A stretch of DNA of 64,000 nucleotides, taken from the IMG/VR virus record IMGVR_UViG_3300031555_002223; one strand, given 5' to 3'. The stretch comes from a virus. The position numbers were made by a program, and so were the translations under genes. The notes beneath the pieces were generated by a model. The model was not told the DNA's origin and did no database searches. It saw nothing but the letters and a program-made list of their open reading frames with translations. The number at the start of each line of letters is the position of its first letter. The stretch's first letter is position 1. Of this stretch, positions 19,450 through 63,108 are shown piece by piece.

Positions 19450-19734
19450 TTATTCCTCACTTATTGTATATCCGATGATGGGACTGCTACCGCTGTAAAG
19501 AGCAAGGAAGGTTTCAAGTTCATCAATGACGATTTTCTTCTCACCTTGTCCTCGCAGGAAATTGCTTAAATATTGACCGTAACTCATAAAGTTAAGACCA
19601 ATAATACCATATCCATGCGCTTTAACCTCCATGGCGGTAGGATTTCCGCACACGAAAACAGCATTATTTTCTTTCGCAAATTCCATCAATCGTTTAGTTT
19701 TACCTGTTCCGCGACCTTCAATAATTCTAGTCAT
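19450..19734 (-). CDS. small P-loop protein
   Basis: GRGTGKTKRL. Confidence 0.35.
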   Translation of the reverse strand: MTRIIEGRGTGKTKRLMEFAKENNAVFVCGNPTAMEVKAHGYGIIGLNFMSYGQYLSNFLRGQGEKKIVIDELETFLALYSGSSPIIGYTISEE

Positions 19735-20660
19735 TATGCTCCGCCTTTCGTACTATTAAGTCCAAATTCCTTGGTCTTATAAAAATCTATCCAATATACC
19801 TCACGCTCATTAAGCTTATCTCGAGGAACTTGTTCAAGTACCTCGAAAGTGAAGTTAAACTGTCCAGACTTTTGCATTGTCTGATATAGACGATTGGTAG
19901 AAACTCCGTGAGCAAGAGAGGCTTTAATGTGTTGACGAAAACGCTCTCTTATATCAACGCTCTGTCCGATGTAAGCAAGCCCGCTGGTTAAATCAGTTAT
20001 CTTGTAAATACCGGAAGTCTTAGTAGTTGCGGGAATCCCGTTGAACAAATGCGACATTAAAACATCATATGCTGGGCGATAATAGGTTTCGTAGATAACT
20101 TTATCTACACTATCCTTCTTGATAAGGTGCTTCTGCAAATCTCTCAATAAAGAAATGTCACTCTTATCATCATCGCTAATAGCAAGACGGTAATAATCAC
20201 ACTAACTATCCATTTCTTCCTATCTCTGTCGTGCTTGGATATAAGCAAGCTGCTTGTCTTCCAAATCCTTGAGCTAATGCGCTTCTCTTTCTTTGCGTGA
20301 AACGATAATTGCAATTTGCTTCTCGATTTCCGCGGAAGTGGCGGCCTAATATTCCTTAAGCTTGATTTCAAGCTCAGCTTTCTTGACCTCATACTCCTCT
20401 TGAGCACGCTTTGAAGCGCCCTGCCGCATTTCATCGGCTGTTTTAGACAAAGACTCGACAATCTCTTTTTGAGTTACAAGAGTTTGACTTACCTGCTCTA
20501 GTTCTTGCCTTTTGTTATCTAGCTCTTGCTAAACAACCCTATTCTAGAAGATAGTTTCCGCGTTTGCGGCCACTATCTCGATATGTTTGCGTTTTAGGTG
20601 ATATGCGTATAGACCGAGGCTAACTATCACTACTAACGCGATAATAAGTGCCACTGTCAT
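19734..20660 (-). CDS. membrane-anchored coiled-coil protein with C-terminal GIY-YIG nuclease domain; six in-frame TAG codons
   Basis: from ATG 20660 the frame has 171 codons with six TAG and no TAA/TGA, continuous with GIY-YIG ORF 19734..20147 (GIYKITDLTSGLAYIGQSVDIRERFRQH); N-terminus MTVALIIALVVIVSLGLYAY is a TM helix. Confidence 0.6.
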
Positions 20661-20709
20661 GGCATAAAAGAAAGTCGGTAAGAAGTTTCCCTCTTACCGA
20701 CTGAATCAA

Positions 20710-20973
20710 TTACTCAGCAGCATCAGGGTCAAATGCTAAGCCTGCCTCGGTGAGACGCAGATACTTGACCTTCTGATGGGAATTGTCGGCAAGGGTAATT
20801 TCAGCCTCTTCACGGAAGCCAAGCTGCTTACGCTGAATGGCGGAAGTAAAAATGCCATCAACCTGGCGCTTCTCGAGACCAAGAGTTTCAGCAACTTCAG
20901 CCGCTGTCAGGTCCTTACCATGATTCTCCTTAAGATAATTCAGAACTGCAAGTGTATTAGGTTTCATAGCCAT
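20710..20973 (-). CDS. small wHTH DNA-binding protein
   Basis: 87 aa. Confidence 0.35.
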   Translation of the reverse strand: MAMKPNTLAVLNYLKENHGKDLTAAEVAETLGLEKRQVDGIFTSAIQRKQLGFREEAEITLADNSHQKVKYLRLTEAGLAFDPDAAE

Positions 20974-21262
20974 AGTGATTTCTCTCCTTAATCATTCTTT
21001 TGATGCCATCTGCTGAACCATAATGTCAACTTCAAGCATAACGTTGATACCGTCAGGCAGGGCCGCAATTTGATTTGTGAGTTGCATAATGCGACGTTCG
21101 GCCTGACTCTTTTCTTCTGTTGAGGAAGTCTTGCTGGAATGCACCAGTTCGCAATCATAAATCTCTTTAGCAAGCTTCCTCATTTGCTTTCGAGTCATAA
21201 ACTCTCTGTCCCTTCGTTTATTCCTGATTACGAATATATAATAACTTATTTTTTTTCTTTAG

Positions 21263-22465
21263 TCAAAATACCTCGTTAATCAGACACTCATGAGGGTTTT
21301 TATCATCTCTCATGCACTTAAAAACAGGATGACGCAAAGTTTTTTCCTTGCGGTCAATGCTCATACAATCAAGAGAGCAGACGTGGCCAACATAATTTTC
21401 TGGTGTCTCAGTCATCTGTCTACGCATTTCATCGGTAATACCAGATGATACCGTACCAAGCTCAACTAGTTTTCCTTCGTCATTATATGCACCAATGCCG
21501 ATAGAGGTGTGCCAACCCAAATAATAAGGTTTAGTGACAGGCGTATAAAATTTGTCTTTGTCTTCAACCCCAAATACCGAGTGTTTATTGTTCTTATAGT
21601 GGAAGTAGTAATTACCTTCAACTAATTCTGGATTGCCCCAACCTCCAAAACAATGGTCTTCTTCAAAGCAATCATAGAATGTGGGAGTCTGTCTCTCCCA
21701 ATAGGGCCATGTTTCAATATCCTTGCCAGTATATTCTCTGGTAGGTTCAATGGTGCGTGTAATCACCAAATCAATAGAGTCCATCTGCTTGCACTTAATC
21801 GTATCCCATGCAGGTCTCTTACCTGGTGTATATGGAGCATTGCGCTTCTTCAAAACAGCACCTTCTCCACCTGCTTTTAAGATACGAGACACCTCTGCTT
21901 CGAGGTTTTCTTCAACCTTTTCAGCAAGTCTCAAGAAATCGTAGGAATCAAGAGAGTGAAGATTCCAGATTGCTTGAAGAATTCTATATCGTGTTTCTGC
22001 CCCTTCATTTACAAGACTGACACCGTCATATGCCAGAATATCGTGGCAGTAGTAATGAATATTACCCTCTTTCTGCTGACGACGAATTGCTTCGGCAGAA
22101 AGGCAACCCATAATGTGCGTCACATCTTTACTGGTACCACCTGGAACGTGGATTTCACCAATAATAATTGTACCTGCGGGAAGGCAGCTAAAAGCGTCTA
22201 TAATGTGAGGTACATTGCCACCCTTTTCCGTGAGAATGCCCGTAGTCTTACTTACTGTTCGACCGAACAAGTAAGAGAAGTTATCGGTTTTTACAAACTG
22301 ATACCATGCTCCGTCGATTTTCTCTTCCAGAAAATACTCCCCGTTGGAACATACTTCAGATAGCATATACTCCTTACCTGCGGGCAGCTTCCAACAGAGC
22401 ATAGGCTCAAACATCAGATTTTCTGCTTCGGGATATAATTCATGTATTTTAGCTTTATCAAACAT
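21263..22465 (-). CDS. ATP-dependent DNA ligase
   Basis: motif I EEKIDGAW (KxDG). Confidence 0.85.
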   Translation of the reverse strand: MFDKAKIHELYPEAENLMFEPMLCWKLPAGKEYMLSEVCSNGEYFLEEKIDGAWYQFVKTDNFSYLFGRTVSKTTGILTEKGGNVPHIIDAFSCLPAGTIIIGEIHVPGGTSKDVTHIMGCLSAEAIRRQQKEGNIHYYCHDILAYDGVSLVNEGAETRYRILQAIWNLHSLDSYDFLRLAEKVEENLEAEVSRILKAGGEGAVLKKRNAPYTPGKRPAWDTIKCKQMDSIDLVITRTIEPTREYTGKDIETWPYWERQTPTFYDCFEEDHCFGGWGNPELVEGNYYFHYKNNKHSVFGVEDKDKFYTPVTKPYYLGWHTSIGIGAYNDEGKLVELGTVSSGITDEMRRQMTETPENYVGHVCSLDCMSIDRKEKTLRHPVFKCMRDDKNPHECLINEVF

Positions 22466-22483
22466 TTATCTCACCTCTTTAAG

Positions 22484-22520
22484 AGATATAAACCTCTTAT
22501 ATATAATTATAAAATATAAA
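22484..22520 (-). promoter_or_regulatory. conserved AT-rich promoter motif upstream of ligase
   Basis: minus reading TTATATTTTATAATTATATATAAGAGG. Confidence 0.45.
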
Positions 22521-22568
22521 AGAGGGTTTGTCAAGCGAGAGCGCTTTTTATCACGCTCTCGCTCAAAC

Positions 22569-61836: not shown

Positions 61837-61928
61837 TGGCGGAGAGGGTGGGATTCGAACCCACGAACCCCTTGCGGGGTTGCCAGTTTTCTAGACTGGT
61901 GCCTTAAACCAGGCTCGGCCACCTCTCC
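61837..61928 (-). tRNA. tRNA-Ser (AGA; unusual A34)
   Basis: type II; stem CCAGU/ACUGG with loop CUAGAAA; G73. Confidence 0.6.
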
Positions 61929-61931
61929 ATA

Positions 61932-62009
61932 TGGTGCTCCGGACTGGACTTGAACCAGTGACCTCACGATTATCAGTCGTGTATTCTAAACCAACTGAAC
62001 TACCGAAGC
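61932..62009 (-). tRNA. tRNA-Ile (GAU)
   Basis: loop CUGAUAA. Confidence 0.75.
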
Positions 62010-62127
62010 ATAAAAGGCAGCGAGAACACCGTGTACTTTGGCATCGGTACTGCTAAACGGAACTGGTGCAGGCACTTATCCCTGAAAGGCTAATCCTTTG
62101 TTCAATCCTCATTAAACCTCACTTAAC

Positions 62128-62202
62128 TGGAGCTGATGACGAGAGTTGAACTCGTGACCCCTTCCTTACCAAGGAAGTGCTCTACCACTGAGCCACATCA
62201 GC
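62128..62202 (-). tRNA. tRNA-Thr (GGU)
   Basis: GCTGATG acceptor; D-arm GCTCAGTGGTAGAGC; loop UUGGUAA. Confidence 0.75.
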
Positions 62203-62208
62203 AGAACT

Positions 62209-62298
62209 TGGCGGAGGCACCGGGACTCGAACCCAGACACCGTTCATCACGGTGGACGCCTTAGCAGGGCGTTGAGATACCAATTACTCCATACCTCC
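62209..62298 (-). tRNA. tRNA-Ser (GCU)
   Basis: type II; loop CUGCUAA; G73. Confidence 0.7.
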
Positions 62299-62333
62299 AA
62301 GTTAAGAACAAGATGGCGAATATGCCATCTTGT

Positions 62334-63108
62334 TTATATATTTAACCAATCCTGATCACTTATTCTTTTAATCTCGCTTGTTTTGTGCGGCAATCCATAT
62401 CTATCGCACCATTTGCGAACAGCATTATCAGATACGCCAAATTGCTTACCAATGGTCGTAAAAGGTGTTGTGCGAATTAAAAGTTTTAATTCCTCTCGAT
62501 TAACAGGCAACTCTTTTCTTTTGTGAATGCCATCACATTTGCTACACCGCATACTATTTTTGGTTATCTCAACACCACAATCACAGCAATAATTTTTTGC
62601 TTTATGCGGATTATTTGGGTCAAATTTGGAGTAATGTAGTGGGTAGTTTAATGTCTCATCAAACCAAGCGCGACCAACATTTATATCTCGTATGGTGTCT
62701 TTGTGAACCCCATATTTACTTGCCAGACTAGCATGAATTATCTCGCCTTCTGTGTCATTAAGTAAAATGGTTTTTATTTCTTCCACTTGAGAAACAGTAA
62801 GTTTACTGCCAGTAATTTCATGATGACCGCCAACCGTTTGATTATATGCTGGATGCAGCTGATTTATCCACCACACTTCTCGGTCATTTAGAGCGGTTTG
62901 CGGACATTCCTCTAAAACCTCAAAAGAAAATGCTGCCTAACCATATTTTCGCATTGCTCGATAAAGAGGATACTCATATCCTTTATCATTGGGATTGTAA
63001 GCAGCTATCTTGTGATTTTTCCATCTCTATTGGATATTACTACTTTGCCCGATATAACTGTGCCCATTAACATCATTGGTGATTTTGTAAATGCCAACCA
63101 TATTATTC
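62334..63108 (-). CDS. GIY-YIG homing endonuclease with C-terminal zinc-finger/HTH DNA-binding region; at least two in-frame TAG
   Basis: upstream of the track ORF the frame reads MNNMVGIYKITNDVNGHSYIGQSSNIQ*RWKNH...EYPLYRAMRKYG*AAFSFEVLEECP (TAG at 62937 and 63027), continuous with 62334..62876. Confidence 0.7.

Follow-up and report, generated by a model that had tools for sequence, protein, structure and literature searches.

Some phages are known to read the TAG stop codon as glutamine. The code-15 gut phages (crAss-like phages, Lak and the phAss-1 group) do so with a tRNA-Sup(CTA), and their TAG codons align with Gln in homologues (PMC9523058; PMC10607447). Borges et al. (bioRxiv 10.1101/2021.08.26.457843, section 8) found gene families that are preferentially recoded, including a homing endonuclease, and proposed that its in-frame stops delay production of the endonuclease until late infection. 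Here, we consider the placement of in-frame TAG codons in a 64-kb stretch of viral DNA (IMG/VR record IMGVR_UViG_3300031555_002223, referred to below as the window; 44.5% GC, with almost all genes on the minus strand). Among the Gln codons of this lineage TAG is disfavoured, and only a small, heritable set of genes uses it roughly as an ordinary synonymous codon. The set comprises free-standing homing endonucleases, a coiled-coil GIY-YIG protein and a RecJ-like exonuclease, as well as, outside the window, RuvC, a third GIY-YIG endonuclease and two small proteins.

The phages of Borges et al. resemble this one in that they encode their own suppressor tRNA, carry recoded stops in a fraction of their genes and have replication machinery that is largely compatible with the standard code. 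In both cases, there are a few families of genes in which the recoded stop is preferred to the usual codons. The endonuclease that they discuss, however, belongs to a group I intron of Agate phages in which TGA is read as Trp, whereas here TAG is read as Gln and the endonucleases are free-standing, with three nuclease types involved. The resident recombination nucleases RecJ and RuvC are also part of the set, unlike in that study. Its TAG-recoded crAss-like phages favour the lysis amidase, spanin and tail tube protein, whereas amidase, lysozyme-like and tail-fibre-like genes are TAG-poor here, and recoded genes make up 18% of the total compared with the 26-71% reported. In the code-15 gut phages, TAGs break hallmark structural genes (TerL, portal, tape measure). 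Those phages have no detectable nucleotide similarity to the window, whose lineage is marked by MVP, a TROVE-like protein and an RNA-repair module. The phenomenon is already described for recoded phages and is extended here to TAG, to free-standing endonucleases and to resident RecJ and RuvC. The work of Borges and colleagues reportedly appeared in Nature Microbiology in 2022.

Open reading frames (ORFs) were called with TAG as a sense codon, and starts were curated using overlap with the upstream gene and the extent of family matches. This yielded 76 genes (18,655 codons) with 29 in-frame TAGs spread over 14 genes. All 76 genes end in TAA (50) or TGA (26), which follows from the construction of TAG-sense calls and is not evidence. 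For comparison, 47 loci were fetched from related viral contigs around MVP and RecJ. A recoded sister clade (contigs 3300045988_075249, _093451, _084596, _068993, _073130 and _080502) has RecJ 64% and MVP 70% identical to the window proteins, and uses TAG about three times as much. In a second clade (L046-L058; RecJ 40-45% identical), the orthologues examined have no in-frame TAG and one of 148 genes ends in TAG. This clade may represent a TAG-free state, either intermediate towards reassignment or reflecting mere AT-rich stop-codon usage. The same phage could be followed for ~14 kb to the left of the window using public contigs that carry identical proteins (L030 and L059).

That the window phage reads TAG as glutamine, with a predicted Gln-like suppressor tRNA(CUA) of its own, is directly evident from the tRNA gene and from comparison with relatives. 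The tRNA gene (anticodon CUA, 91 nucleotides (nt), 50269-50359, minus strand) was predicted by ARAGORN, matches the Rfam tRNA model over its full length (53 bits) and directly abuts tRNA-Ser(UGA) at 50360-50452. It has a U1/U72 mismatch, G73 and a D-arm resembling that of the phage tRNA-Gln (tRNA-Gln(UUG), 56789-56862, minus strand, also from ARAGORN, served for comparison). The identity rules of glutaminyl-tRNA synthetase are an established basis for reading these features as Gln identity, and they point to a Gln-accepting suppressor. Suppressor copies of 75-76 nt with U1/U72 and G73 are syntenic in six related loci. The window copy is longer than those of the sister clade (L001 6993-7067, L002 5932-6007, L003 6682-6757) by a 16-nt insertion in the variable region. 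The phage with this insertion is also the one with ~3-fold lower TAG use, and a 92-nt tRNA-Gln(UUG) with a similar insertion occurs in L015.

Alignments speak to the same point. When window proteins were searched against relatives using tblastn, 297 of the 311 stops inside alignments were TAG. Opposite the relatives' TAGs, the window has Q 92 times (Q makes up only ~3% of window codons), K 25 times, its own TAG 25 times and E 23 times. RecJ has at least five sites at which TAG and CAA/CAG are swapped. Of the 14 TAG-bearing genes, 12 have Pfam or PHROG matches that continue through their TAGs, among them RecJ, ThyX, RNase H, guanylate kinase, AAA_24, PIN-PhoH, amidase and three endonucleases; the exceptions are the coiled-coil GIY-YIG gene and a hypothetical gene at 31881-32345. 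Frames of 200-590 codons are interrupted by TAG only, never by TAA or TGA. There is no sign of TAG terminators, as a TAG lies within 25 codons of the stop in only one of the 76 genes, and in the sister clade TAG is the first stop in three of 175. An alignment of ThyX to PDB structures gave no information on the inserted amino acid, as the TAG position is variable.

Where the TAGs fall agrees with a preliminary description of the window, all of whose per-gene counts were reproduced (six and exactly two in two GIY-YIG genes, three in an HNH gene, four in a plus-strand endonuclease gene, five in RecJ and zero in seven large genes). Gene 19734-20660 (minus strand, 308 amino acids (aa), six TAGs) encodes a protein with transmembrane (TM) and coiled-coil regions and a C-terminal GIY-YIG domain (Pfam GIY-YIG, E=5e-8; PHROG 5123, E=2e-19). 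Its TAGs, at codons 39, 44, 105, 129, 147 and 153 (20544-46, 20529-31, 20346-48, 20274-76, 20220-22 and 20202-04), are all in the coiled-coil half, outside the family matches, and are covered by the sister-clade orthologue alignment only. The orthologue is 48-49% identical, has 8-11 TAGs and adjoins ThyX in the sister clade as in the window; homologues are also present in ten standard-like relatives. Judged from its sequence and setting, this is a conserved resident gene and not, as had been supposed, a free-standing mobile endonuclease.

The other endonuclease genes of the window are free-standing. The plus-strand gene (28317-29195, 292 aa, four TAGs at 28719-21, 28887-89, 28926-28 and 29070-72) encodes a predicted homing endonuclease that combines Zn-ribbon repeats with a C-terminal nuclease domain (PHROG 374, E=3e-52; PHROG 559 over residues 21-281; PHROG 9084, "homing endonuclease"). 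Its homologues in relatives, which include several copies at other loci (three in L019), have 64 TAGs in 4,447 aligned codons (14.4 per 1000). Within the tRNA array there is an HNH homing endonuclease gene (49229-49864, minus strand, 211 aa, three TAGs at 49700-02, 49691-93 and 49490-92), which matches PHROG 10822 over residues 3-171 (E=7e-48) and Pfam HNH under the gathering score (E=8e-4). Between the suppressor tRNA and tRNA-Leu, the sister clade has a homologue of hypothetical gene 60711-61025 instead of this HNH gene, and tblastn of the sister-clade suppressor-tRNA loci found no homologue of it. A GIY-YIG homing endonuclease with a C-terminal helix-turn-helix domain (62334-63110, minus strand, 258 aa; Pfam GIY-YIG, E=5e-8; PHROG 7168, E=3e-32, residues 4-234) has two TAGs (63027-29 and 62937-39). 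For both of these genes, GC content at third codon positions (GC3) is 0.30. A second HNH-type endonuclease gene (56877-57284, minus strand, 135 aa; PHROG 2255, E=6e-37) has no TAG. The remaining gene with several TAGs encodes a predicted RecJ-like single-stranded DNA exonuclease (10900-12660, minus strand, 586 aa; PHROG 2484, E=4e-146, residues 13-582; Pfam DHH, E=6e-11, RecJ_OB, E=4e-6, and DHHA1, E=5e-4), with five TAGs at 12598-600, 12439-41, 12046-48, 11650-52 and 11371-73.

Free-standing endonuclease genes of different families have a common upstream box, CCAAATAAAAAATTTTTGG(T/A)CAA, which is partly palindromic. A second box, CATATAAT(A)TAG-like, lies 21-33 nt downstream of it, a spacing unlike that of a canonical sigma-70 promoter. 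Box sites are at 49920-49942 (minus), 28205-28231 (plus), 57334-57351 (minus) and 63156-63163 (minus) in the window, at ~3880-3900 in L030, and upstream of 13518 and 15591 in L008. The CCAAATAAAAAATTTTTGG(T/A)CAA box could mark a dedicated promoter or operator class for endonuclease genes. A scan for the sigma-70 consensus, made with a view to assigning a temporal class, did not flag the upstream regions of the endonuclease genes.

The placement of TAG is not random, as shown by a comparison with chance of the kind that the preliminary description had asked for. Multinomial placement of the 29 TAGs gave p=3.6e-4 when weighted by gene length, p=4.8e-3 by Gln plus TAG codons, and p=2.4e-4 by codons one step away from TAG. 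The five endonuclease-like genes have 15 TAGs in 1,204 codons (12.5 per 1000), compared with 14 in 17,451 (0.8 per 1000) for the rest (binomial p=4.6e-11; because the nuclease class was drawn up with the data already in view, p-values within the window are descriptive). Without these five genes and RecJ, the remaining nine TAGs fit uniform placement (p=0.27). In Poisson regression, the DNA nuclease class is enriched ~14-fold controlling for GC3 (likelihood-ratio p=1e-10). GC3 alone predicts TAG density (p=3e-6) but adds little beside class (p=0.06), and identity to the sister-clade orthologue does not predict it. Gln richness of coiled coils was considered as a cause and rejected, as weighting by Gln plus TAG codons still gives p=0.005, and class p=8e-10. 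RecJ and DnaE have the same GC3 (0.42), but TAG accounts for five of 27 Gln-type codons in the former and none of 52 in the latter (Fisher p=0.0036). TAGs are not clustered near the N-terminus, where they would block translation efficiently (mean relative position 0.40, Kolmogorov-Smirnov p=0.20).

The ~14 kb to the left provided a test on DNA that had not been seen when the skew was described. There, two nuclease genes, a third GIY-YIG endonuclease (four TAGs in 226 codons) and a RuvC resolvase (two in 156), have together six TAGs in 382 codons, compared with eight in 3,490 for 18 other genes (p=0.0014). The skew is not exclusive to nucleases, as a Q-rich 143-aa protein has four TAGs and a TM/coiled-coil protein two. 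Because these proteins are TAG-rich while the second HNH-like gene of the window has no TAG, the class is impure. The proposal that TAG is concentrated in mobile endonucleases and a few small enzymes thus stands insofar as the concentration is centred on DNA-cutting enzymes, but the set is neither purely mobile nor purely nuclease. A related claim, that large genes are devoid of TAG, is correct as a count, although their zeros are not significant alone (P=0.06 at the residual rate) and take their backing from the sister-clade orthologues.

Those orthologues show the same ranking of genes. In the sister clade there are 13 TAGs in RecJ, 8-11 in the coiled-coil GIY-YIG gene, 8-9 in RuvC (compared with four CAA/CAG), 2-3 in guanylate kinase and 1-3 in ThyX, while DnaE has 0-2 (compared with ~50 CAA/CAG) and the primase, ligase, SSB-like, MVP and TROVE-like genes have none. 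In contig 068993, for example, TAG versus CAA/CAG counts are 13/15 for RecJ, 8/4 for RuvC, 8/12 for the coiled-coil GIY-YIG gene, 2/51 for DnaE and 0/11 for the primase. The TAG share per orthologue correlates between this phage and each of five sister-clade contigs (Spearman 0.51-0.65, p=1e-5 to 6e-3), with a pooled share of 4-6% here and 15-20% in the sister clade. In RecJ, the one gene compared site by site, individual positions turn over, and of 18 TAG sites this phage and the sister clade have only two in common. MVP homologues have one TAG in 23,165 aligned codons. In L008, a distant recoded relative, there are nine TAGs in 169 codons of RuvC, five in 254 of a GIY-YIG gene, 14 in 338 of a Zn-repeat endonuclease and none in 815 of MVP, and in L019 three endonuclease copies have five, 10 and five. 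The gene-specific TAG regime is thereby confirmed as real and inherited, and the concentration in the window is the top of a gene-by-gene tolerance gradient common to the phage family. Because this phage is at the low-usage end, little more than its most tolerant genes still carry TAG.

Some individual sites and genes in the relatives deserve mention. A RuvC TAG at "LALD-X-S", beside the catalytic Asp, is common to L030 (4629-5099) and L008 (5636-6145), and a ThyX TAG at "IE-X-CGRVCY" is common to the window and two or more sister-clade contigs. From a reading of its translation only, a radical-SAM maturase-like gene in L008 (2284-4629, minus strand) contains an apparent intein with an endonuclease domain and has seven TAGs. 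Tail-fibre genes of the sister clade have 3-5 TAGs each. In the left extension, translations (no family search was made) suggest a diversity-generating retroelement (DGR; reverse transcriptase, Avd-like protein) and a serine recombinase (L059 1794-5836 and 6173-6862), the apparent DGR target being a 589-aa protein with a lectin-like C-terminus. The DGR target has 7-8 TAGs and the recombinase 5-6 in the sister clade, and they have 0-1 in this phage.

Concentration in a few genes could mean either that these genes have too many TAGs or that the others have too few. As a neutral yardstick we used TTG/CTG, because a first-position change between C and T is synonymous for Leu just as it is for CAG/TAG under this code, although the comparison is rough. 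In the TAG-rich genes, TAG/CAG is 1.0 and TTG/CTG 3.3 in this phage, and 3.8 and 6.2 compared with 2.3 and 4.0 in the sister clade. In all other genes TAG/CAG is 0.03-0.24 with TTG/CTG at 0.8-14, so that TAG is under-used 10-60-fold relative to the yardstick and makes up ~1.5% of Gln-type codons. In the TAG-rich set, the share is ~26% in this phage and ~40% in relatives. What stands out is that most genes avoid TAG and a few tolerate it, with no excess that proves selection for TAG.

The model that we favour, if by a modest degree, is one in which a heritable gradient of TAG tolerance is combined with a protein yield that depends on competition between the suppressor tRNA and host release factor 1 (RF1), so that TAG is purged from early or abundant genes and DNA-cleaving enzymes are spared. 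TAG would be decoded only when the phage tRNA outcompetes RF1. Each additional TAG would lower the yield, in a roughly geometric way, and the yield would increase as tRNA levels build up. Where products are required early or in large amounts (the replication core, the RNA-repair module and abundant structural proteins), their genes would be selected to lose TAG. DNA-cleaving enzymes, if required late or at very low levels and damaging when overproduced, would escape this purging and may gain from the delay. It is plausible that translation of the TAG-rich genes is conditional on suppressor-tRNA abundance, as the preliminary description suggested; their dependence on the phage tRNA(CUA) follows from the code. 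Its further idea is that TAG could serve for timing or containment of nucleases. Of these, timing would match what has been proposed for the intron endonuclease of the TGA-recoded Agate phages.

Two other systems offer useful parallels. In phage T4, homing endonucleases such as I-TevI and the Holliday-junction resolvase, endonuclease VII (gene 49), are not made early even though early transcripts cover them, and control is at translation. The T4 mechanism is a masking of the ribosome-binding site in early transcripts, unlike the tRNA-dependent codon considered here, and no sequence homology is implied. In Streptomyces, the bldA tRNA-Leu(UUA) reads the rare TTA codon, which is present in few genes and ties their translation to one tRNA of time-varying abundance. 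The bldA case differs in that TTA is a sense codon without a competing release factor and the system is a cellular, developmental one.

Several observations weigh against the favoured model, in addition to the definition of the nuclease class after the fact. The use of TAG is not clearly above neutral expectation, and positive selection for it is not demonstrated. RecJ is wedged between TAG-free genes on the same strand, overlapping them or leaving gaps by a few bases only. It probably shares a transcript with these neighbours, so that any control would have to act at translation. The amidase, lysozyme-like and tail-fibre-like genes of the window are TAG-poor (two TAGs in 1,827 codons), and TAG-poor lysis-type and tail-fibre-like genes are a misfit with a simple rule that late genes are recoded. 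Neither one HNH-like gene of the window nor an HNH gene of L008 has any TAG. Conversely, TAG-rich non-nucleases include the Q-rich 143-aa and TM/coiled-coil proteins, to which the sister clade adds its serine recombinase and DGR target.

Pure relaxed selection, under which TAG is slightly costly everywhere and simply drifts to mutational equilibrium in weakly expressed or selfish genes, is a possible but doubtful explanation. It would have no regulatory consequence, and nucleases and homing endonucleases would merely happen to be low-expression genes. This fits with the lower GC3 of TAG-rich genes in every genome examined (0.38 compared with 0.47 for other genes here; 0.25/0.30, 0.21/0.26, 0.17/0.26 and 0.10/0.19 in relatives), and with TAG/CAG ratios in these genes that are comparable with or above TTG/CTG. 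It also fits with the turnover of TAG positions in RecJ and with the TAGs of the window HNH and GIY-YIG genes, which occupy variable positions (T, L, E, K or I in the closest homologues). However, 49 other genes, many of them small hypotheticals, have only three TAGs in 8,564 codons, so that neither small size nor accessory status is enough for a gene to be rich in TAG. Likewise, neither GC3 (beside class) nor protein divergence accounts for TAG density, and DnaE still has only 0-2 TAGs in the sister clade although it is only 44-45% identical to its orthologue. The finding that the same orthologues are TAG-rich across lineages indicates a stable gene-specific regime, which relaxed selection would also allow.

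A stronger form of the regulatory idea holds that TAG is positively selected in DNA-cleaving enzymes as a dose-and-time throttle tied to one phage tRNA. Such a throttle would shield replicating phage DNA early in infection, and would leave the nuclease genes inert if copied into the host or into competitor phages that use the standard code. In the yardstick comparison the use of TAG does not clearly exceed neutral expectation, and we consider this form unlikely.

We give little credence to recent horizontal acquisition, the other explanation offered in the preliminary description. It would have the TAG-rich genes newly arrived from heavy TAG users and still unadjusted to this genome. In the tRNA array, GC3 of the HNH and GIY-YIG genes is indeed low (0.30, compared with 0.40-0.69 for most genes), endonuclease families are found at differing sites and copy numbers in relatives, and TAG-bearing homologues (4-6 TAGs per ~250 codons) are present in a minority of other phages' contigs. 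Yet RecJ, RuvC and the coiled-coil GIY-YIG gene are residents with sister-clade orthologues, the RecJ TAG sites are lineage-specific, and the GC3 of RecJ and the plus-strand endonuclease is ordinary (0.41-0.42). Among 2.9 million viral contigs, identity to the best homologue does not exceed 63% for the HNH gene and 58% for the GIY-YIG gene, and the closest HNH homologues have no TAG. In L008 and L019 the endonucleases are TAG-rich and the core genes are not, so that no uniformly TAG-rich donor was seen among the relatives examined. An older exchange of the free-standing HNH and GIY-YIG genes between recoded phages is possible. Finally, the suggestion that the code is standard and the TAG frames are pseudogenes or strings of small ORFs, which could appeal to the frequent decay of homing endonuclease genes and to public standard-code gene calls that split TAG-bearing genes, is almost certainly wrong given the long frames broken by TAG alone, the profiles that align through TAGs, the predominance of TAG opposite Q in relatives, the suppressor tRNA and the lack of signs of TAG gene ends.

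The remaining TAGs of the window are single ones, all in minus-strand genes. The family match spans the TAG in the dNMP/guanylate kinase gene (4002-4580, TAG at 4194-96; Pfam Guanylate_kin), an AAA_24 (Sak4-like) ATPase gene (16384-17349, TAG at 17242-44; Pfam AAA_24), ThyX (18820-19446, TAG at 19372-74; Pfam Thy1, also spanned by PDB alignments), RNase H (27268-27768, TAG at 27685-87; Pfam RNase_H), a Phage_lysozyme2 plus Amidase_2 gene (29190-30509, TAG at 30222-24) and a PIN plus PhoH gene (30568-31806, TAG at 31504-06). For the hypothetical gene 31881-32345 (154 aa, TAG at 32157-59), which has no family match, read-through is suggested by the open frame alone. In a tail-fibre-like gene (53942-54475), the TAG at 54026-28 is in "GTMT-X-KAITDEL", and the open frame runs 27 codons beyond it. 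A small CxxCxGxG Zn-finger gene (12657-12926) has a TAG at 12687-89, nine codons before the stop, and this is the only TAG that could, from its distance to the end of the gene, be a terminator.

Genes with no TAG, also on the minus strand, include DnaE (4570-8385, 1271 aa, with 52 CAA/CAG), NrdD (1721-3943, 740 aa), the DnaB helicase (14223-15761, 512 aa), the GyrA-like (22569-24944) and GyrB-like (24957-26861) topoisomerase subunits, and MVP (44312-46714, 800 aa) and the TROVE-like gene (47090-48595, 501 aa), the last two exceeding all other genes of the window in GC3. NrdD and DnaB do have TAGs in their stop-to-stop frames, but these are upstream of the ATG starts and thus outside the genes.

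Overall, the window has a block for replication and nucleotide metabolism (NrdDG, DnaE, an SF1 helicase, the RecJ-like exonuclease, a primase-like protein, DnaB, AAA_24, ThyX, ligase, two topoisomerase subunits and RNase H) and an RNA-repair-type block (32500-48600). The latter includes SPFH/flotillin, several phosphoesterases, an AAA_33 kinase, NAD synthase, isochorismatase, RNA ligase, an RlaP-like nucleotidyltransferase, cREC_REC, a DenV-like glycosylase, MVP and the TROVE-like protein (DUF2828/DUF7788). It has zero TAGs and a GC3 of 0.5-0.69, compared with ~0.40-0.45 for the replication block. From 48.6 to 63.6 kb there is an array of 20 tRNAs and a transfer-messenger RNA (tmRNA), with small genes and endonucleases in between. 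A megablast search of 25 kb of the window against GenBank phages gave no match. Using tblastn, MVP matched three huge unannotated phages only (41-44% identity), and DnaB matched Firmicutes phages (~40% identical).

The genes with the strongest codon bias have very long ORFs on their antisense strand (plus strand: 44276-48715, 32504-34084, 52571-53926 and 17393-18418), facing MVP and the TROVE-like gene, SPFH, a tail-fibre-like gene and an SSB-like gene. The longest has 1,479 codons without any stop, and the frame at 52571-53926 is broken by TAG only. These ORFs likely result from avoidance of TTA, CTA and TCA codons in the facing genes. Some TAG-rich ORFs were rejected as spurious. ORFs 39478-40845 (plus), 40842-41519 (minus) and 56648-57016 (minus) are antisense to real genes or coincide with tRNA genes, and overlap with real genes or tRNA genes also affects 61029-61625 and 59573-60283 (both minus) in their 5' parts. 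Two of the spurious TAG-rich ORFs are underlain by additional tRNA-like genes (minus strand, 56674-56786, 46 bits, and 61379-61471, 37 bits), found using Rfam and missed by default ARAGORN. These have 51-nt and 17-nt insertions in the anticodon arm, respectively, and may be intron-containing or disrupted tRNAs; when introns are allowed, ARAGORN reports the former as "His(atg) with a 42-nt intron".

The phage also appears to encode functions for ribosome rescue. A 51-aa ORF (61029-61184, minus strand) matches ArfA (Pfam PF03889, E=4e-6), ~500 nt from the phage tmRNA, and a PTH2 peptidyl-tRNA hydrolase is also encoded (the ribosome-rescue entries are at 61029-61184, 60197-60535 and 26876-27268, all on the minus strand). 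ArfA is an alternative ribosome-rescue factor that recruits RF2. The set could be functionally linked to recoding, as TAGs may stall or terminate ribosomes.

There is a practical consequence for public records. Standard-code calls for this same phage cut the GIY-YIG genes into 54- and 65-aa fragments (L031) or leave a 180-aa C-terminal fragment (L034), and because calls of this kind truncate these nuclease genes, endonuclease, RecJ and RuvC content is under-reported. For experiments, RecJ versus DnaE (with the same GC3 and in the same replication block) and RuvC versus its TAG-free neighbours are usable contrasts. The analysis also separates two things that are often merged, the avoidance of TAG by most genes and its tolerance by few. 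Phages with recoded stops are usually described by module, with late genes recoded and early genes not. The pattern found here is finer: each gene has its own TAG tolerance, and this tolerance is inherited across clades that differ ~3-fold in TAG use, even while the sites within RecJ turn over.

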